From: a virus
IMG/VR virus record: IMGVR_UViG_3300028840_001067
Coordinates: 1 to 38,839 of that record
Direction: 5' to 3' (one strand)
Length of the DNA stretch: 38,839 nt
Positions 1,253-38,839 of the stretch are shown here, in pieces. Under the pieces are notes generated by a model. It was not told where the DNA came from. It saw nothing but the letters and a program-made list of their open reading frames with translations, and made no database searches. Position numbers and translations under genes: made by a program. The stretch's first letter is position 1, and each line of letters opens with the position of its first letter.

Positions 1253-1405
1253 CTACTCCTTGGGAAGTATTTCCCACTTACCATCGCTGTTAACAGCATG
1301 GTGTGTATCACTGAGTGATTTCTTTTCTATGAATGCCTTAGCTTTGTCTTCACTGAAGAAGTACTTCGGCTTACCGTCTTGTCCTAATGATTTATCTTTA
1401 GACAT
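1253..1405 (-). CDS. Small hypothetical protein, 50 aa (below ORF-track cutoff)
   Basis: Own translation: MSKDKSLGQDGKPKYFFSEDKAKAFIEKKSLSDTHHAVNSDGKWEILPKE. GAGGGGG lies 6 nt upstream of ATG 1405. The ORF fills an otherwise empty 148-nt gap, and its last codons form the SD of the next gene. Confidence 0.5.
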   Translation of the reverse strand: MSKDKSLGQDGKPKYFFSEDKAKAFIEKKSLSDTHHAVNSDGKWEILPKE

Positions 1406-1814
1406 CGGCTACCCCCTCTTGTAGTACATAGTAGTACTTAGATTTTACATTACACTTACCAGACTTTTGCATTCGTTGTACTACCGTCTGCACTACGTTA
1501 GGTGGTAGTGATGTTAGCTCTACTAGTTCATCTGTGCTAGCCATACCGCGCTCTCTAATGAAGCGCTCTATCTGGTCAGCACGACTTGTGTACGCATGCT
1601 CAGGCTTATGTAGGCTATATTCCCCACAGCCTATACGGTATAGAGCTAGGTTGTGTTGCTGGTTGTGATATACATTCTGAAGTACAGCGCGTGCTACTTC
1701 TATCTCCACATCTAACACTCTAGCTATTAGCCCCGATGTAAATATCACGTCTGGATTACTACGCATAAATGCCAGTAGCGTAGGTACTCTGTTTACGTTA
1801 TATGTCTTACCCAT
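1398..1814 (-). CDS. Hypothetical protein with two winged-helix/HTH-like segments (possible DNA-binding regulator)
   Basis: 138 aa. The helix-turn-helix-like stretches are ...GLIARVLDVEIEVARAVLQNV... and ...STDELVELTSLPPNVVQTVVQRMQKSGK.... Function is inferred only. Confidence 0.6.
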   Translation of the reverse strand: MGKTYNVNRVPTLLAFMRSNPDVIFTSGLIARVLDVEIEVARAVLQNVYHNQQHNLALYRIGCGEYSLHKPEHAYTSRADQIERFIRERGMASTDELVELTSLPPNVVQTVVQRMQKSGKCNVKSKYYYVLQEGVADV

Positions 1815-1815
1815 G

Positions 1816-2013
1816 TTATTCTCCTACTGATTTTAATGCTGCTTCTGGATAAATCTGAACACTACCAATTTCAGTGTTTGACTCAACGCTGTACCCGCGA
1901 GGTGTCAGTGTAGTGCTATAGTAACCAACAACTTTACCTGTCCATGATGAGCCTTTAATCTTTGTAACTTCATCGCCCAACCCCCACGTTGGGTTTTCAA
2001 ATACAACACCCAT
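1816..2013 (-). CDS. dfrB: Type II (R67/DfrB-family) dihydrofolate reductase homologue
   Basis: 65 aa from ATG 2013, with AAGGAG 6 nt upstream (track start 2028 overlaps that SD). [50 protein letters not shown] aligns without gaps to the R67 core [50 protein letters not shown]. About 30/55 residues are identical by eye, including the active-site VQIY. Confidence 0.85.
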
Positions 2014-2083: not shown

Positions 2084-2110
2084 AATAAAAGAACCCCTCA
2101 CAAGGAGGGG
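2084..2110 (-). terminator. Rho-independent terminator (minus strand)
   Basis: The minus strand reads CCCCTC-cttgt-GAGGGG followed by TTCTTTTATT. It starts immediately after the TAG at 2111-2113. Confidence 0.7.
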
Positions 2111-2269
2111 CTACCAAGGTATATCGTCATCGAAGGGGAAGTCCTCATCAGTAACTTCCGGTATCGGTGTACGTATAGTTAGGTCCAGCTTAACTGGTTC
2201 CCATGGTGGAATGTCAGCGGTGCTGGTATCACTCGTCTGCTGCGTCAGAGTAGATTGTTTCGATTCCAT
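2111..2269 (-). CDS. Alternative-frame ORF (52 aa) encoding an SSB-type C-terminal tip; either a separate small protein or the true recoded/frameshifted C-terminus of the SSB-like gene
   Basis: Own translation: MESKQSTLTQQTSDTSTADIPPWEPVKLDLTIRTPIPEVTDEDFPFDDDIPW*. It is in the +1 frame relative to 2229..2942, is open from 2308, and ends 1 nt before the terminator stem. Confidence 0.4.
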   Translation of the reverse strand: MESKQSTLTQQTSDTSTADIPPWEPVKLDLTIRTPIPEVTDEDFPFDDDIPW

Positions 2270-2943: not shown

Positions 2944-4941
2944 TTATTTCTCCATTAATGATGAATAATCAACACCTTCCATTCGGATAGGTGGTATTGC
3001 TGTTACTACAATCTCACCCCCATCTATGTCTACAACTTCTGCATCATATTGTGATGGTTGGAAATGTAAGTCACCCCCTCCCCAGTAGTCACCAGCTTGG
3101 TAGCCTACACCGAGAGGTACATTGAACTGTAAGTCATACACTGTGTCTAAGAATTCGTACACCCACCAAAGGAATGTCCACTTACTTATCTCGTATAGTT
3201 CTTCCAGTTCGTCTTCAGGACTCTCCGCTATCACTGAGTCATGCACAGTGTTAACTAAGAAAGTCTGCATTTCTTTACGCTTGATTATGTGCCATGTAGC
3301 AACGAGTGCTATAGGTATAATCTCTGCTGTTGCTAAGTTCTGTACGGGGTAGTTACAGATAGATGGGAAATCTTGACAGTACCCGCTATTAGAGACAGAA
3401 CAATTAGGATAATAGAATGTTATCCCTGTTGCGTGTGTTATCTCCTTGGCACGTAACACCTTAGCCTGCCACTGCTGCTGTGCTTTGGTGATGTCTGCAT
3501 ACTTCTCACGGAAGGCTGCGTAATATGCCATCTGTGAATCAGTACCATACTGCCCGCCATACAGAGGCTTAAACGTGTCAGCCTTAGCTAGTGTACGCCA
3601 GTCACCTCCCTTGGGTGCTGTCTTCTTCTGTGCTGCTACCTCATCCACAGTACAGTTATTGAGAACCGACGCAGTAAACGAATGCACATCGACACCGTCG
3701 ACGATGTCTTGGCATATTCGTACGTCTTGTCCAACGAAACCCGCAACTCTGAATTCGATTTGCGCACCGTCCATTTCAACAACCTTCCACCCCTTATTAC
3801 GTGCCGAGTATAAAGGCTTGTATTTCCTTGGGCTGTTTTGAAGCTGTATACTCTTGGCCTTCGGGTATCCTTTAAACTTGATTTTGATACCACTAGAAGA
3901 CAAGCGGTGTGTAACTGTTTGTGCTTGGTTGAACTGCGCGTAGAATAAACAATCCTCCTTCTCTGTAACTACTCCATAGAAGTAGTCTAGATTTTTAGTT
4001 AAGTCAGCATTCAGTTGAGCGAAAGTTTTCTTTAGTTGTAAGAACTTAGCTTGCTTCTTGTTCTTAGGTGTAAAGGAAAGTATCTCCTCCCCTGTTGGAC
4101 GGTGTTCTACTCCCTTCTTCTTTAGAGGTTTGAACTTGAGTACATCGTAGATAAACTCTTGCATCTGAGGGACAGACCTAGGGTTACGTCCGTCTATCAT
4201 TAGCATTAGTTCAGCTTCTACATCCGCCATATTCCTAGATGCCTGCTCATACTCCTTAACGACCTTCTCTTTATCTAGGTGTACACCACGTAGTTCTATA
4301 TCAGCTAACACTGGTGACAGTAAGCACCTGTTATAGAAGAGATGTAGTACATCACGCTCTACCATCTTATCCCGTAAGACTTTCCAAAGATTACGTGTCT
4401 GAAATATGTCAGACTTATTACGCTTCTCTAACAGAGAGCGAGGGATGTCACGTGGGCTAACACCACACCTCATTAGCTTATCTACTAGTGGGTCTTTAGT
4501 TACACCTAAGTGTTCCTTAGATAGTGTACCTAGTGCAAGTGCTCCCTTCTTACCAGCCTTTAAGTTACCAGTCAGTACATACTCAGCTAACATAGTGTCT
4601 GCTAGTAGGATACATGATGGGTCAAGGCCAGCACGGATAAGCCATTTGATATCGAACTTACCATTATGTGCCACAACAAAGTCAGCTTCATACATCTCTT
4701 GTATCAACTCAGCCATGTCGTGTATGCCGCCATAGATAAACTTCTCATCACCTCTACCACCATGACCTCGCACCCATGCAGCAGATACTAAATCATTCTG
4801 CTCCCATGTAGCGTCAGGGCTACGTTCATCACCGTTGGTGTCTGTCTCTAAGTCGAGTACTAAGTAGTTATCTGATAAGTAGATGTTAGGGTCTAGGTTA
4901 AGAAGGAAGTCAGGTAAGTAATCATAGTAATCCTTGCTCAT
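2944..4941 (-). CDS. Family A (T7-like) DNA polymerase with 3'-5' exonuclease domain
   Basis: 665 aa. Exo motifs LVLDLETD and VAHNGKFDIKWL. Pol motif A VVEMDGAQIEFRVAG, motif B RTLAKADTFKPLYGG, motif C VNTVHDSVIAE. Confidence 0.92.
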   Translation of the reverse strand: MSKDYYDYLPDFLLNLDPNIYLSDNYLVLDLETDTNGDERSPDATWEQNDLVSAAWVRGHGGRGDEKFIYGGIHDMAELIQEMYEADFVVAHNGKFDIKWLIRAGLDPSCILLADTMLAEYVLTGNLKAGKKGALALGTLSKEHLGVTKDPLVDKLMRCGVSPRDIPRSLLEKRNKSDIFQTRNLWKVLRDKMVERDVLHLFYNRCLLSPVLADIELRGVHLDKEKVVKEYEQASRNMADVEAELMLMIDGRNPRSVPQMQEFIYDVLKFKPLKKKGVEHRPTGEEILSFTPKNKKQAKFLQLKKTFAQLNADLTKNLDYFYGVVTEKEDCLFYAQFNQAQTVTHRLSSSGIKIKFKGYPKAKSIQLQNSPRKYKPLYSARNKGWKVVEMDGAQIEFRVAGFVGQDVRICQDIVDGVDVHSFTASVLNNCTVDEVAAQKKTAPKGGDWRTLAKADTFKPLYGGQYGTDSQMAYYAAFREKYADITKAQQQWQAKVLRAKEITHATGITFYYPNCSVSNSGYCQDFPSICNYPVQNLATAEIIPIALVATWHIIKRKEMQTFLVNTVHDSVIAESPEDELEELYEISKWTFLWWVYEFLDTVYDLQFNVPLGVGYQAGDYWGGGDLHFQPSQYDAEVVDIDGGEIVVTAIPPIRMEGVDYSSLMEK

Positions 4942-7687: not shown

Positions 7688-8443
7688 TTAACGTAGGTCT
7701 ATCCCTGTCAGTTCAAAGAATACTTCAGCATCATAGTTAGGTAAGGCTTTCACCTTAGCCTTATCCCTATTGGATGCCTTAGCATAACTATCCAGCCAGC
7801 TCTGTTTATAGTCATCACCTAAATTAAAGTAAAAGAAATTAGGGATGTCGGATGCTTCCCATACGCTGCGTAGGCAGGGTTTATTAAACACCTGAATAAT
7901 CTCATCCCGCTGTGTATTCAAGTAGCCACTGCTCCCGTTAGTACTATTCCAGTCTCCGGAGTTATAGTCTCCGGAGTTATGGCGGCCGGAGTTACGGTTT
8001 CCGGAGTTATAGTCTCCGGAGTTATGGCGGCCGGAGTTATAGTCTCCGGAGTTACGGTCTCCGGAGTTAGAGTGTCCGGAGTTACGGTTTCCGGAGTTAG
8101 AGTGGCCGGAGTTAGAGTGTCCGGAGTTATAGCGGCCGGAGACTAGAGCCTTCACTTCGTCATCAGTTAAAAAGCGTATGATGCGTAGACGGTTGGTACA
8201 CCCTTTGTGTTGGTGTGGTTGCTCAAACTCAACGTCACCTAATACCTCCACCTCGGCATATAGGTTCTCTGTGATATCCTTTTTTACTGGGTAGTACTGT
8301 AAAGTTAAGACTAGCTCTTTGCAGAAGTGGAAGCCTCGTTTACATAGAATAGGTAATTCCTTTAATTCGTAGGTCTTACCCTCTTCAAATTTAAAACCAC
8401 GGCACGTCCCGTCTTTGTTCAAGGCTTTATAATAAGTAGTCAT
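7688..8443 (-). CDS. Early protein with N-terminal YKA..DG.CRGF...GFHFC domain and a central (NSGxx)12-14 pentapeptide-like repeat
   Basis: 251 aa. MTTYYKALNKDGTCRGFKFEEGKTYE...CKRGFHFC resembles a widespread phage/bacterial domain that I recall as DUF7666 (from memory, unverified). It is followed by NSGHS NSGHS NSGNR NSGHS NSGDR NSGDY NSGRH .... Confidence 0.75.
   Translation of the reverse strand: MTTYYKALNKDGTCRGFKFEEGKTYELKELPILCKRGFHFCKELVLTLQYYPVKKDITENLYAEVEVLGDVEFEQPHQHKGCTNRLRIIRFLTDDEVKALVSGRYNSGHSNSGHSNSGNRNSGHSNSGDRNSGDYNSGRHNSGDYNSGNRNSGRHNSGDYNSGDWNSTNGSSGYLNTQRDEIIQVFNKPCLRSVWEASDIPNFFYFNLGDDYKQSWLDSYAKASNRDKAKVKALPNYDAEVFFELTGIDLR
7950..8150. repeat. 15-bp tandem repeat (about 13 units, core CCGGAGTT) inside the CDS
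   Basis: CCGGAGTT recurs at 7956, 7971, 7986 ... 8121 with exact 15-nt period, and a last degenerate unit (CCGGAGAC) lies at 8136. It encodes the NSGxx repeats on the minus strand. Confidence 0.9.
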
Positions 8444-9559: not shown

Positions 9560-10128
9560 ATTTTCTTTGATAGGTCAACATCCAGTACATCAGGCTGCCA
9601 CTCTTTCTTAGGTGCATCATAAGATTTACCTATACCCCATGAATCGTTTTGATTCATAGCATGTTCATCTTTTGTTTGTGTACAATTAGATTGAACATCT
9701 AATTTAATGAACAACGCTTTGGTGAAGGTTGTGCGATGAGTACCGTCATCATCTACAATGTACTTTACACCGTTAAATGTAGCCCTAACGTAATAGTTAG
9801 TACCTACTGCGAAGTCCCCGACCTTACTATCTACACACTCAAGCATATCCCCCTCCTTGCAAGCAGTTAGAATATCGTGTAGATGCCCTTGTTGTTGTGT
9901 ATTAACTTGTACAGGTTTGAACTTGACGAGTAGTGTAGAGATAGGATAATAAGTTCGCGCACAACCCAGTTCATTTATAATGCATAGTTCACCAGCCGGA
10001 CTTTTTTCTATTTGATAAGATTTACCCACAGTAATATGCCACGCATCACTGTAAGTACATTCCACTACATCCCCTACCTGTAGTCCTTGTGCTTCAAGAC
10101 TGCCGTCTGAAAATTCAAATTCTTTCAT
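9547..10128 (-). CDS. Hypothetical protein with an internal tandem domain duplication
   Basis: 193 aa. GDVVECTYSDAWHITVGKSYQIE...KFKPV is echoed by GDMLECVDSKVGDFAVGTNYYVR...IKLDV. Confidence 0.65.
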   Translation of the reverse strand: MKEFEFSDGSLEAQGLQVGDVVECTYSDAWHITVGKSYQIEKSPAGELCIINELGCARTYYPISTLLVKFKPVQVNTQQQGHLHDILTACKEGDMLECVDSKVGDFAVGTNYYVRATFNGVKYIVDDDGTHRTTFTKALFIKLDVQSNCTQTKDEHAMNQNDSWGIGKSYDAPKKEWQPDVLDVDLSKKIWEW

Positions 10129-10352
10129 TGTTTAAGTTCCTTAAGTTTATTTGCACCCTTAGCTAAAGAGATGCCGTTAATAGCGAACAGACGTATGCCC
10201 TCCCAATATTCTGGGTGGTTCATTGCCTTCTCTTCACCTATTTCAATAGCAACTTTCAATCGTGCTGCTATTTCATTACGACCTAATGCTTCTAGCTGTG
10301 GAATTAAATCTCTTATTAATGCTTCACGCATTATTTCACTTGCTGCATTCAT
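10125..10352 (-). CDS. Hypothetical protein
   Basis: 75 aa, helical, with an ATGA-type overlap with the downstream gene. Confidence 0.6.
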   Translation of the reverse strand: MNAASEIMREALIRDLIPQLEALGRNEIAARLKVAIEIGEEKAMNHPEYWEGIRLFAINGISLAKGANKLKELKQ

Positions 10353-10364
10353 ACTTTACCTCTA

Positions 10365-10787
10365 CTAATCAAAAATGTAATTTTCATTAACGAAATCAAG
10401 TGTGTTAGGCACAAGCATTTCACCATATCTACCTTCCATTATAAGGTCTTTGTTTTTCAAAAATAATTTACACATACCCAAAGCTATTGACACATATCTA
10501 ACTCTTTTCTCTGTTCTATAAACCAAACTATCAATAGCTTCATCTTTTGATTTTTTAATGGTACGGCTATTTGTTTTTGATACTTTAACTACACCTATCT
10601 TATTATTCTTTAAAAGTGTAACTGGGTTTTTATTCCTGTCGTTATCAATAATTATTTTTGCATAATCATATCTATCATCACGTACGCAAAAATAGTAATG
10701 CTCTGTTTGGTGTATAGATACGAACTTAATAAAATTAACTATAACGCCTTCCTCAGATACACTTAATACTGCTTTATAAAATTTCAC
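10365..10787 (-). CDS. Hypothetical protein in a markedly AT-rich segment (possible moron)
   Basis: 140 aa, K/N/I/Y-rich. By eye the DNA here is much more AT-rich than the flanks. Confidence 0.6.
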   Translation of the reverse strand: MKFYKAVLSVSEEGVIVNFIKFVSIHQTEHYYFCVRDDRYDYAKIIIDNDRNKNPVTLLKNNKIGVVKVSKTNSRTIKKSKDEAIDSLVYRTEKRVRYVSIALGMCKLFLKNKDLIMEGRYGEMLVPNTLDFVNENYIFD

Positions 10788-10790
10788 ACT

Positions 10791-11063
10791 TTACCCCTTG
10801 TTATACCCATGATAAGTCTCAAGCCATTCTTCAATGTCTTGCATACTCATTGTGTCGAAAACCTCACCGCATATGACAAGTAAGTCATGTGCGTCAGATT
10901 GTGTTATACCTTGTCCGTTAAGCAGTGAATGTAATCCATCAAGTGCACCCTTAGCTGCATGTGGGTAGTACCGCTTAGTAGCAGCAGCTTGCTGATGTTT
11001 AGTTAACTGCTCTGATATTTCAGCTAGGTATTTGAATAGTTCTGTTACTGTTATTGTTGTCAT
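10791..11063 (-). CDS. Hypothetical protein (90 aa from ATG 11063)
   Basis: MTTITVTELFKYL... starts 4 nt after the upstream stop (11068). The longer track ORF (to 11129) would overlap the upstream gene by 62 nt. Confidence 0.6.
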   Translation of the reverse strand: MTTITVTELFKYLAEISEQLTKHQQAAATKRYYPHAAKGALDGLHSLLNGQGITQSDAHDLLVICGEVFDTMSMQDIEEWLETYHGYNKG

Positions 11064-12338: not shown

Positions 12339-12644
12339 GTAGGCAGCAGCCTACATCTAGATGCCCTCTACTCCAATAGAGGGCTATATATTAAAACTTC
12401 TTACGGGAAGTTTAGCTATACTACCTCCTTAAAAGGTAGTATTAAGGATAGTATAGAATCTCTCTTAAAAAGAGATTCATATAGTATAAGTAATATAGAA
12501 GTTCTTATCAGGAGAACTTCTTATATAGTAGCTGTTCTCTAACCCTACCCGAGAACAGCATATAGTAGTAGATACTCTCTTACCTTATCATCGAGAGTAT
12601 CTTATATAATAAATTCTTTAGGGAAAGAATTTATATAGTATAAG
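12339..12644 (+). repeat. Hairpin array 1: nine different stem-loops separated by ATATAGTA-type linkers
   Basis: Perfect inverted repeats at 12339-54, 12363-84, 12394-413, 12418-42, 12456-78, 12497-521, 12531-59, 12570-602 and 12609-34. There is no ORF. Confidence 0.9.
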
Positions 12645-12788
12645 GACTTAAAAATTTATGAAGAACTGTACATTCTATGAACTTTGCATTCGAATTAAAT
12701 GCAATGGGCATAAGCTAAACAGCATGCTAAAAGCTGCTGGTAACTCCGTTCTCTTCGAGACGTGAGTTTATTTGCATAGAAGAAGGTA

Positions 12789-19669: not shown

Positions 19670-19987
19670 CTCTATAGAGGAACACACTAAGGGGGTGTGT
19701 GTTCCGATAGATATCCCTAGCAAGGGATATAGTAGTAGATATCCTCAGAAGAGGATATAAGTAATGTTCTCTCCCCAAAAGAGAACATAGTAAGTACAGT
19801 ATAGAATCTCTTTTTAAGAGAGATTCATATAGTAGTAGATACTCTCTTACCTTATCATCGAGAGTATCTTATATAATAAATTCTTTAGGGAAAGAATTTA
19901 TATAGTATAAGTAATATAGAAGTTCTCCTGATAAGAACTTCTATATAGTAGCTGTTCTCTAACCCTACCCGAGAACAGCATATAGTA
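19670..19987 (+). repeat. Hairpin array 2: nine stem-loops with ATAGTA-type linkers; five modules shared with array 1
   Basis: Inverted repeats at 19679-705, 19711-30, 19739-58, 19764-88, 19804-26, 19837-69, 19876-901, 19918-42 and 19951-79. 19826-19911 is identical to 12559-12644 (86 bp). Confidence 0.9.
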
Positions 19988-20023
19988 TACACGTATAAGA
20001 ATTGACATAGAATTGACGTACTC

Positions 20024-35997: not shown

Positions 35998-37080
35998 CTA
36001 CTCGTTAATATGCAGGCTGACTTCCCTAGCTATATCAGCTAAGTACTTACCTAGTGTGTCGTTCTCTACAACTACAGTTTTAACACCATCAACGTTAACA
36101 TAGTCGCGGCTGTCACCTTCAAAAGTGCAGCCGTCTCTCCTGATATGAACAATCAGTATATTTTTAATACCTACTTTATCAGCTAGTGGTTGTATTTCAT
36201 CAGGGAAACCGCCATCACTGAAGAACACCAACCCTTCAGGTAGGGCATACGCTGCTAGTTTACCAAATGTATTATCACCAAAAGTCGGCTTAATGACATT
36301 CTCTGATACATGGATAAGGGCGTCACGCTTGGATAGGCATATATCTCCCAGTGTGTACATAGGGAGGTCTTTAACCCAGACACACGCAGACTCTTCGTAT
36401 GTCTTGTCATCACACTTATCATCATAATGCTTTAAGAAATCCTCTACTGCTATCCCGAGAAAATCAGCAGTGAGTTTAATCAAAGATGTTTTCATTGACG
36501 CATGTGTGCCATTGAAGTATTCACAGCAAAACGATGTAGCTAAGTCTTTACCTGAACGAGCGGGCCCATTGAATATTACAACTTTATTAGGTGTATCTTT
36601 TTTAGGTAGGCCCACAGCAGGTCCCTCCTCTAAATCTAACTCTATTTGTTTAGGTCCACCTACATACACCACCTCTATATGAGGGTAGTGCTCTCGGATG
36701 TAATCACATACGTCAGCATCATCATCAACCCATTTAACTACCTCGTCGTAATGTGTGTCTATCCACGCATATTTGAATTCAACAGGGTGACGGCAGTCGT
36801 TTGTATCGCGTTCTATGATGGCGTGCGGTTGATAAAGACACATGTCTACTAGCCAGTGTCTAGTCCCAAACTGTGAACTAGTTAATATAAATACCTCCGC
36901 CAATGCCTCCTCTATATCTTCTTCATAGTATTCACATGTGGGCAGCTTCCCCCCATCCCTGTTAACAGCTACCTGCCACTTCAACCAGCTCTCTGTTTTA
37001 GATTTATCTTCAGGTATAAGATGGTCAGCACAGCTAGAATCTCGTAGTGTTCCATCTAAATCGTATACAATAATTTTCAT
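35998..37080 (-). CDS. Fusion of a HAD-superfamily phosphatase with a P-loop deoxynucleoside-monophosphate-kinase-like domain
   Basis: About 360 aa from ATG 37080 (ATGA overlap with the upstream ORF; the 26 extra track residues overlap it). HAD motifs IVYDLDGTLRD, FILTSS and WVDDDAD. The C-terminal half has VVIFNGPARSGKD and an overall layout like T4 gp1. Confidence 0.6.
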   Translation of the reverse strand: MKIIVYDLDGTLRDSSCADHLIPEDKSKTESWLKWQVAVNRDGGKLPTCEYYEEDIEEALAEVFILTSSQFGTRHWLVDMCLYQPHAIIERDTNDCRHPVEFKYAWIDTHYDEVVKWVDDDADVCDYIREHYPHIEVVYVGGPKQIELDLEEGPAVGLPKKDTPNKVVIFNGPARSGKDLATSFCCEYFNGTHASMKTSLIKLTADFLGIAVEDFLKHYDDKCDDKTYEESACVWVKDLPMYTLGDICLSKRDALIHVSENVIKPTFGDNTFGKLAAYALPEGLVFFSDGGFPDEIQPLADKVGIKNILIVHIRRDGCTFEGDSRDYVNVDGVKTVVVENDTLGKYLADIAREVSLHINE

Positions 37081-37313
37081 TTGAATATCGCCTTTAATAT
37101 TAAATGCATAGCGCTGTACTCTAGCCAACGCTCGTGTCCCTGCTCTACATATATACACGTAGTCATATGACTACTTAGCTCAAACTGCACCTTAGTAAAC
37201 CTCGTGGGCACTGGGTAGTACGTACTGTAGTCAGTTAGAGTCACGTGTTCTGGCACGCCATCTACATGACGCCACTTGTGTGTCCCGTCCTTAAAGATGA
37301 AGAGTCTATCCAT
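37077..37313 (-). CDS. Hypothetical protein
   Basis: 78 aa. AGGAAG lies upstream. Its stop overlaps the next ATG. Confidence 0.55.
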   Translation of the reverse strand: MDRLFIFKDGTHKWRHVDGVPEHVTLTDYSTYYPVPTRFTKVQFELSSHMTTCIYVEQGHERWLEYSAMHLILKAIFK

Positions 37314-38190: not shown

Positions 38191-38723
38191 ACTTTCCCTC
38201 CATCCTCTTGTCTAGCTTTACGCTGGTGGTCAGGACGTATAAGGTTATACTCCATCTTCTCTATGATGATGCGTTGAATAGGGAACCCTCTATCCTCTGC
38301 TGCTTCATAGGCCATCACAACTAAGCGTTGTAATTGATAAGCACTCACTTCATTACCACGATGTAGCCACACATCACCAAGTAACATAAACATCGAAGCT
38401 AGACGCTCACTCATTAGCTGTTGGTATTTGTAATGAGTCTCTAACTTATCAGGCCATTCAGCTCCTAAGATACTTAGTGTATCCAGTCCACGTATCACTA
38501 CATCCGCCAGCTCAGTAGCTATCATTGGGTATTGCGGTAGCTTATCGTCCATCAATCCCCTACGTAATCCAGTAGTAGCTTCTCCTAACTCCTCACCGAG
38601 TAGGATGACATCTTGTGCAAATGTGCGGGGCTTATCTCTCCACCCCATGTACAAGTTCTGTTGTGCTACTGTCGGTTGTAAGTCCTTTAAGAAAGCAATC
38701 AATTCCATACTTAATCTTCCCAT
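38184..38723 (-). CDS. mazG: MazG-like nucleoside triphosphate pyrophosphohydrolase
   Basis: 179 aa (174 aa from ATG 38708). LLGEELGEATTGLRRG...ATELADVVIRGL matches the MazG EExxE...E..D helix pattern. The start lies in the terminal overlap. Confidence 0.7.
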   Translation of the reverse strand: MGRLSMELIAFLKDLQPTVAQQNLYMGWRDKPRTFAQDVILLGEELGEATTGLRRGLMDDKLPQYPMIATELADVVIRGLDTLSILGAEWPDKLETHYKYQQLMSERLASMFMLLGDVWLHRGNEVSAYQLQRLVVMAYEAAEDRGFPIQRIIIEKMEYNLIRPDHQRKARQEDGGKVW

Positions 38724-38839
38724 TTGTTTTTTAAGGTTAACGTCTCACCTTCAGTTAGTGGTTTAAAATCACCCTGCATCCACGTACAACTCAACTGGCC
38801 CATTGTATACCTAGTGTCGTTAGACCATAGTACAAACCC
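38696..38839. repeat. Terminal overlap copy 2: identical to 1-144
   Basis: Same 144 bases as the window start. Confidence 0.95.

Follow-up and report, generated by a model that had tools for sequence, protein, structure and literature searches.

R67 dihydrofolate reductase (DHFR), or DfrB1, is encoded on an integron cassette or plasmid, and homologues of this enzyme have been described repeatedly in phages. DfrB2-like open reading frames (ORFs) were reported on four freshwater viral contigs (PMC7265639, 2020), and homologues from a Pseudomonas phage and a Vibrio phage were characterised (PMC9835603, 2023). DfrB-H4, the one from the Vibrio phage, conferred trimethoprim resistance up to or at least 600 ug/ml, whether as the full-length protein or as its isolated SH3 segment (PMC9835603). 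In a survey of dfr genes in lytic phages, 8 of 1,961 were dfrB and 1,953 of 1,961 were of the FolA/DfrA type; dfr and thyA genes were found to be enriched in lytic phages (PMC12466917, 2025). Among 20 viral homologues compared in another study, ThyA was present in 3 of 10 cluster-I genomes, all four cluster-II homologues were ThyA-linked, and non-catalytic cluster-V cases occurred in ThyX phages; 114 of the 123 homologues predicted to form tetramers were active in vivo, as judged by trimethoprim resistance (PMC12486381, 2025). That phages encode DfrB, that it is active and that it occurs independently of ThyA had all been published between 2020 and 2025. Here we describe a 65-codon dfrB-like gene at positions 1816–2013 of the virus record IMGVR_UViG_3300028840_001067 from IMG/VR, which was analysed over its whole length of 38,839 nucleotides (nt) and is referred to as the window. 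The original prediction had given these coordinates exactly and left the minus strand unstated; its central claim, a phage-encoded homologue of R67/DfrB-type DHFR, is borne out by the profile match, key residues and predicted fold described below.

The Pfam profile for R67 DHFR (PF06442, DHFR_2), a check that had been proposed with that claim, matched the 65-amino-acid (aa) product with 76.6 bits against a gathering cut-off of 25 (E = 1.4e-21; profile positions 20–77 of 78). A phmmer search of all PDB chains returned R67 DHFR entries only (E about 1e-17 to 1e-18), and the match to 1vie was gapless over 58 residues with an E-value of 5e-18. Pairwise alignment with DfrB1 gave 57 gapless columns, of which 32 were identical (56.1%), close to the "about 30 of 55" that had been counted by eye. 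Neither dfrB nor any other ORF of at least 60 aa in the genome matched a FolA-family Pfam profile. Residues K32, W38, S65 and V66-Q67-I68-Y69 of DfrB1 are all kept in the phage protein as K18, W24, S51 and V52-Q53-I54-Y55, and they are invariant among 59 aligned homologues. The VQIY motif is exclusive to cluster I and K32 is the most conserved residue of the family (PMC12486381), and W38 is required at the dimer-dimer interface for tetramerisation (PMC9835603). The phage protein carries both the VQIY pore motif by which cluster I is recognised and a tryptophan, W24, at the position equivalent to W38. The differences from DfrB1 include W45Y, H62E, R29E, R31T and K33I. Tyrosine at position 45 and glutamate at position 62 are the usual states among environmental homologues, and W45 can be substituted without effect in DfrB (PMC9835603). 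Of the segments named in the original prediction, VQIY, W38 and LTP-GY-VES are identical to those of DfrB1, but "YY" corresponds to WY in DfrB1, W45 being a tyrosine in the phage protein.

An AlphaFold2 model of the monomer, built from the homologue alignment, had five strands and a predicted local distance difference test score (pLDDT) of 87.8. When this predicted monomer was compared with the PDB by Foldseek, the first seven ranks were all R67 DHFR, with template modelling (TM) scores of 0.94–0.96 on the target and root-mean-square deviations (rmsd) of 0.6–1.2 Å. The next folds were chromo, Tudor and KOW-like barrels, whose E-values were five orders of magnitude worse. The phage protein therefore resembles R67 DHFR/DfrB1 (PDB 1VIE, 2RK1) in its Pfam family, its gapless core, the conserved residues and the rmsd of the predicted monomer. 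In contrast to the 78-aa DfrB1, it lacks most of the disordered N-terminal tail, such that only about 8 residues precede the SH3-like core, and it is encoded by a lytic marine phage with 43% G+C rather than by an integron cassette or plasmid. NF000331 (trim_DfrB) is the NCBIfam model that NCBI uses in genome annotation to name clinical DfrB resistance proteins, and against it the phage protein scored 81.1 bits, compared with a cut-off of 137. On its sequence and predicted structure, the protein is a DfrB-family homologue of the VQIY, or cluster I, type; it is not a clinical DfrB resistance allele, because its NF000331 score is under the cut-off.

DfrB homologues were found by tblastn in 25 GenBank phage records, representing about 18 distinct phages of Rhizobium, Sinorhizobium, Vibrio, Pseudomonas, Ochrobactrum and Aeromonas. 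Many of them carry the annotation "dihydrofolate reductase" or "R67 dihydrofolate reductase" already, and the family has a PHROGs entry (phrog_31682). The 21 IMG/VR contigs with close DfrB relatives have essentially no other genes in common with the window phage, which shows that dfrB passes from one unrelated phage to another. Among 1.84 billion cluster representatives searched exhaustively, 1,551 clusters matched at E ≤ 1e-3 and, of these, 987 reached E ≤ 1e-10; many are multi-domain. The nearest sequences overall were viral or metagenomic (77–90% identity), and the closest cellular relatives were found in Alphaproteobacteria, Actinobacteria and an Acidobacteriia metagenome-assembled genome, not in Vibrio. 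No DfrB of a Zobellviridae or VpV262-like phage was present among the GenBank phage matches or in the literature searched, and within this scope the window gene is the first DfrB found in a VpV262-like phage. It is a new example, not a new phenomenon, and leaves existing knowledge unchanged. The original prediction overstated its novelty, given the homologues already in GenBank, in PHROGs and in four published studies (PMC7265639, PMC9835603, PMC12466917, PMC12486381). It had also regarded the gene as a clue to the natural role and origin of the DfrB fold; there is no support for a part in the emergence of the clinical genes, whose ancestry has been traced to Burkholderiales (PMC11662351).

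Two of the proteins recovered in the exhaustive search differ in architecture. One of 157 aa (P0122) contains a pair of DfrB-like SH3 domains in natural tandem, with GSVQVWP in the first domain and GQVHVEP in the divergent second one, and it recalls the engineered tandem constructs of R67 DHFR. Another, of 119 aa (P0121), joins a 77%-identical DfrB core to a C-terminal extension rich in charged residues.

Among the characterised phage enzymes, DfrB-H4 is very probably NVP1030O_25 (A0A2I7QNH6) of Vibrio phage 1.030.O, as judged from its description (PMC9835603). NVP1030O_25 was the top match to the window protein in BFVD, a viral structure library. Both proteins are phage-encoded, their SH3 cores are 77.8% identical, and they share the TK-x-KGSSW pore mouth, E62 and VQIY. 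NVP1030O_25 is, however, a 218-aa multi-domain protein, whereas the window protein is a bare domain. Their loci differ as well: NVP1030O_25 lies among tail/baseplate genes of an unrelated myovirus, 1.9 kb from a DNA methylase gene, whereas the window gene belongs to the replication module of a podovirus. What the window adds is a well-supported example of DfrB in its 65-aa minimal form, as a conserved accessory gene of a lytic marine podovirus lineage.

Positions 1–144 of the window are identical to positions 38696–38839, and a contig of the same phage (L022) reads through the junction; the window therefore holds a complete genome of 38,695 bp. Its replication and nucleotide genes encode a family-A DNA polymerase, a DnaB-like helicase, a primase, a 5'-3' exonuclease, a second exonuclease, a deoxynucleoside monophosphate (dNMP)-kinase-like protein, a MazG-like pyrophosphatase and an HNH endonuclease. 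The structural block is of podovirus type, with small and large terminase subunits, portal, capsid and tail proteins. Profile searches of the ORFs detected no integrase, repressor or other lysogeny family in the genome. The closest cultured relative is the lytic Vibrio phage VpV262 (Zobellviridae, Vipivirus), which has the same gene order and aa identities of 80% for PolA, 69% for the helicase, 66% for the primase and 67% for the exonuclease; a search of IMG/VR for closer phage relatives, with PolA as the anchor, recovered VpV262 alone. Judged by its gene content, the window is a lytic marine podovirus related to VpV262. No DfrB was detected in VpV262 by tblastn or by profile hidden Markov model over six-frame translations, even at E ≤ 10. 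In the window, dfrB is located in the replication module between polA and the exonuclease gene, an interval that contains a 52-aa ORF, dfrB, a 138-aa ORF and a 50-aa ORF. The corresponding interval of VpV262, from the polymerase/ORF22 to the exonuclease, contains ten other small ORFs. Given that VpV262 has other small ORFs in place of dfrB, the gene occupies a variable accessory slot of the replication module.

Comparison of dfrB with its homologue on the IMG/VR contig L001 (90% aa identity) revealed 24 synonymous and 8 non-synonymous differences (dN/dS = 0.059), which indicates strong purifying selection on the gene. The gene is identical at the nucleotide level in six further contigs of the same phage, which come from different ENA, JGI and SRA samples. 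Its G+C content (41.9%) matches that of the genome (42.9%), which argues against a recent import from the high-G+C bacteria that also hold relatives. On L001 (IMGVR_UViG_3300028844_004210, positions 3446–4844), the dfrB homologue is flanked by counterparts of two window genes, the 193-aa early ORF and the small terminase gene. Given that this distantly related phage has dfrB at a different position, the gene has moved even within the wider group.

The absence of a recognisable ThyA or ThyX, which had been noted in the original prediction, holds for the complete genome. No ORF of at least 60 aa matched a ThyA, ThyX or FolA-type Pfam family. The tblastn queries were E. coli ThyA, Thermotoga maritima ThyX, E. 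coli FolA and the ThyA domain of the fusion on contig L021 described below; they found nothing in the genome below E = 1, and E. coli FolA found nothing at E ≤ 10. Regular expressions for catalytic motifs, applied to all six frames, gave no signature within any real ORF. The 38.7-kb genome thus contains no ThyA or ThyX partner with which dfrB could form a DHFR and thymidylate synthase module. ThyA, ThyX and FolA were likewise not found in Vibrio phages 1.030.O and F89 g1, the latter of which encodes a stand-alone DfrB that is also 65 aa long. DfrB without thymidylate synthase is the usual configuration in the VQIY cluster-I viral subgroup, and the window phage fits the thymidylate-synthase-less majority of the cluster-I viral genomes (PMC12486381). 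It also resembles the viral homologues of that study in encoding a Caudoviricetes DfrB domain of the kind predicted or shown to be a tetrameric DHFR. It is unlike the cluster-II homologues, all of them ThyA-linked and with other pore motifs such as LHIF and LHIY. The T4-type Frd, a FolA-family phage DHFR that is paired with the thymidylate synthase Td, catalyses the same reaction for the same presumed purpose, the supply of deoxythymidine monophosphate (dTMP) for phage DNA, but the fold is unrelated and the window phage has no thymidylate synthase partner.

A direct connection between the two enzymes was noticed elsewhere. On a 71-kb viral contig, L021 (IMGVR_UViG_3300020045_001617, positions 9995–10993, plus strand), a VQIY-type DfrB SH3 domain lies in frame with a full-length ThyA that is 56.6% identical to E. 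coli ThyA over 267 aa. The sole DfrB-thymidylate synthase fusion of PMC12486381 has the LHIY motif of cluster II and comes from a single-cell bacterial genome. From its sequence, L021 looks like a second such fusion, and a viral one.

We propose, with a probability of about two-thirds, that the dfrB product works as an active homotetrameric DHFR alongside host FolA, adding to its capacity while dTMP is made by host ThyA in the infected cell. That the product is an active tetrameric DHFR is highly probable from its sequence; that it supplements host FolA for dTMP synthesis is favoured by a narrow balance. By homology, four 65-residue SH3-like protomers would assemble as a dimer of dimers around a single central pore, lined by the V52-Q53-I54-Y55 strands and with K18 (K32 of DfrB1) at its mouth. 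NADPH and dihydrofolate (DHF) would bind head to head in this pore, hydride transfer would yield tetrahydrofolate (THF), and the pore architecture would not bind trimethoprim; the cloned gene would probably protect E. coli against the drug. Strong precedents for such activity are DfrB-H4 and the 114 of 123 predicted tetramer-formers (PMC9835603, PMC12486381). The phage genome is 57% A+T and encodes its own replisome, the dNMP-kinase-like protein and the MazG-like pyrophosphatase. Given that the phage is lytic and has no thymidylate synthase, de novo dTMP should have to come via host ThyA. Each turnover of host ThyA would oxidise methylene-THF to DHF, ThyA being the only cellular reaction that yields DHF in quantity. 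If a DHFR is made from the phage replication module, more DHF would be reduced than by host FolA alone, and the thymidylate cycle would not stall while phage DNA is synthesised. FolA is present in the host at low abundance, and even a slow DfrB could add substantially to it if well expressed. A folate-cycle role of the VQIY subtype is supported by the in-frame fusion of DfrB to ThyA in L021, and the ThyA linkage of all cluster-II viral cases points to a connection of phage DfrB with the dTMP cycle (PMC12486381). We infer that dfrB is an accessory metabolic gene and not resistance cargo.

Several observations weigh against this proposal. The phage protein has a net charge of -2, compared with 0 for the DfrB1 core, and a glutamate replaces R29 of DfrB1; in the published work, activity is predicted by a pore of positive potential (PMC12486381). 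The N-terminal tail of about 20 residues, which is missing in the phage protein, is needed for good expression of DfrB1 (PMC9835603). The lack of a thymidylate synthase leaves the physiological role weakly constrained, and ORF clustering of the window with 23 DfrB-carrying phage loci or genomes found no conserved dfrB neighbour beyond the MazG-like pyrophosphatase, present in 4 of 24. Deletion of FolA-type dfrA in two lytic phages left the burst size unchanged under normal conditions (PMC12466917). Finally, DfrB enzymes are slow, and it is suspected that they have a principal binding function still to be discovered (PMC12486381, PMC11662351).

These points bear on an alternative that we consider unlikely, namely that the protein is mainly a non-catalytic SH3-like binder of a ligand, nucleic acid or host protein, whose reduction of DHF is incidental and irrelevant to the phage. 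The want of a ThyA, ThyX or FolA partner, and of a neighbour gene that recurs across the 24 phage genomes or loci, would be expected of such a protein. Many viral homologues are domains within longer proteins of unknown function, and the folds closest to the predicted monomer after R67 DHFR are binding domains of the chromo, Tudor and KOW types. Catalysis has itself been proposed to be promiscuous relative to an undiscovered binding function, and the cluster-V phage homologues are non-catalytic (PMC12486381). The non-catalytic clusters III–V, however, are without the VQIY, K32 and W38 motifs (PMC12486381), whereas these catalytic cluster-I pore residues are invariant in the 59 homologues, a conservation that would be difficult to account for if the pore were not under selection. 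The ThyA fusion of L021 also links the VQIY subtype to the folate cycle.

Marginally less probable still is that in small lytic phages without thymidylate synthase (the window phage, 1.030.O, F89 g1 and most viral cluster-I cases) the VQIY-type DfrB may serve the "principal" function of the family and not the thymidylate cycle. Such a function might be the binding or reduction of another pterin or nicotinamide ligand, or independence from a host FolA that is shut down or limiting. If this were true, no natural system would be cleaner than these minimal phage genes for learning what DfrB does. A complete genome without thymidylate synthase or FolA is in any case a data point on why a slow DfrB is kept in nature, and a useful one because trimethoprim selection is implausible for this phage.

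It is very improbable that dfrB is a trimethoprim determinant spread by phage under antifolate selection, rather than the FolA-supplementing enzyme proposed above. The protein is homologous to the clinical DfrB enzymes (56% identity to DfrB1), similarly distant relatives give high-level trimethoprim resistance in E. coli (PMC12486381, PMC9835603), and phage dfrA aids phage reproduction under trimethoprim (PMC12466917). Against this stand the score of 81 bits, under the clinical DfrB cut-off of 137, and the lack of detected lysogeny genes, hence of a route to stable host conversion. The phage-like composition of dfrB and the purifying selection on it within phage lineages are not the pattern of a recent capture, and no integron or transposon features were found nearby. 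Moreover, published analyses conclude that the evolution of DfrB was not a response to trimethoprim, which is a synthetic drug (PMC12486381, PMC11662351). It should be noted that homology screens of viromes will label this gene "DfrB"; resistance surveillance should treat such a label with caution, since the gene is under the curated clinical cut-off and on a phage without detected means of lysogenic transfer. That the ORF arose by chance or is a decaying remnant without a functional product can practically be dismissed: against its shortness, its position behind a terminator-like hairpin, its lack of a recognisable promoter and its absence from VpV262 stand profile E-values of 1e-21 to 1e-23, a strong Shine-Dalgarno (SD) sequence, the dN/dS of 0.059, a full-length and confidently predicted fold and its retention on 9 contigs of several samples.

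The features at and around dfrB are listed in Table 1.

Table 1. Position and strand of the dfrB-like gene and of adjacent features in the window
Feature	Position	Strand	Details
Downstream 138-aa ORF	1398..1814	minus	ATG 1 nt past the dfrB stop; SD is GGAG within the last dfrB codons
dfrB-like coding sequence	1816..2013	minus	65 aa; ATG at 2013; TAA stop at 1818-1816
SD sequence AAGGAG	2025-2020	minus	6 nt 5' of the ATG at 2013; read directly from the sequence
Terminator-like hairpin	2092..2112	minus	G+C-rich 8-pair stem with 5 GC pairs and CTTTTATT T-run tail; consensus scan, pattern match only
Upstream 52-aa ORF	2111..2269	minus	C-terminus DFPFDDDIPW, an acidic tail of the single-stranded DNA-binding protein (SSB) type, from the translation

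An alternative in-frame ATG (2026–2028) lies immediately 5' of the SD sequence and would extend the product by 5 residues to 70 aa; it lacks a good SD sequence of its own. The 65-aa start was chosen by gene callers in 9 independent public contigs, and the closest homologue (P0001) begins at the equivalent residue. The terminator-like hairpin is directly 3' of the 52-aa ORF and about 80 nt ahead of dfrB. The consensus scan detected no sigma-70-like promoter between this hairpin and dfrB. A repeated promoter-like motif, CATATAGTA, was also looked for upstream of dfrB and was present solely in the two intergenic switch regions described below. The 138-aa ORF is probably translationally coupled to dfrB, as suggested by the 1-nt spacing and the GGAG inside the end of dfrB. 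It had no Pfam, PHROG or NCBIfam match. It adjoins dfrB in each of the six contigs L022–L027; it is not beside dfrB in the other 23 phage loci and is absent from VpV262. The 52-aa ORF has a short match to a VpV262 region, a separate small gene annotated as "similar to SSB C-terminus". In the window it overlaps, in another frame, the end of a 237-aa ORF rich in RGNS, and it was not called by the public gene callers.

The 144-nt repeat was considered as the true genome ends, by comparison with VpV262, whose 138-nt terminal repeats are at a different genomic position. This was rejected as the favoured interpretation, as the repeat is inside the replication block and overlaps an ORF at 16–303, and L022 is continuous there. 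More probably, the duplication arose as an assembly overlap because the sequence is circular or permuted.

Other features of the genome were noticed in the course of the analysis. The two regions in which the direction of transcription switches (12440–12680 and 19715–20000) have common direct repeats of 32–99 nt with 78–100% identity. Each pairs a short hairpin with the CATATAGTA motif, which occurs nowhere else in the genome, and they look like arrays of phage promoter or terminator elements. At 7906–8160, within an ORF at 7688–8443 on the minus strand, about 17 tandem copies of a 15-nt unit specify the pentapeptide repeats of a DUF7666 protein. This protein has 251 aa in the window and 216 aa in L022, a difference of seven repeat units, which indicates that the repeat copy number varies between strains. 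In L022 (6774–9070) the DNA polymerase was called as two pieces, of 538 and 108 aa, that lie about 350 nt apart. The window, L023, L024 and L026 have an intact ORF of 665 aa instead; the split could be a frameshift, indel or insertion variant. Lastly, a 386-aa protein encoded at 35998–37158 on the minus strand, in the nucleotide-salvage part of the genome, is an unusual fusion of an N-terminal polynucleotide-kinase-like region (phrog_415) and a C-terminal dNMP-kinase-like region (phrog_139).

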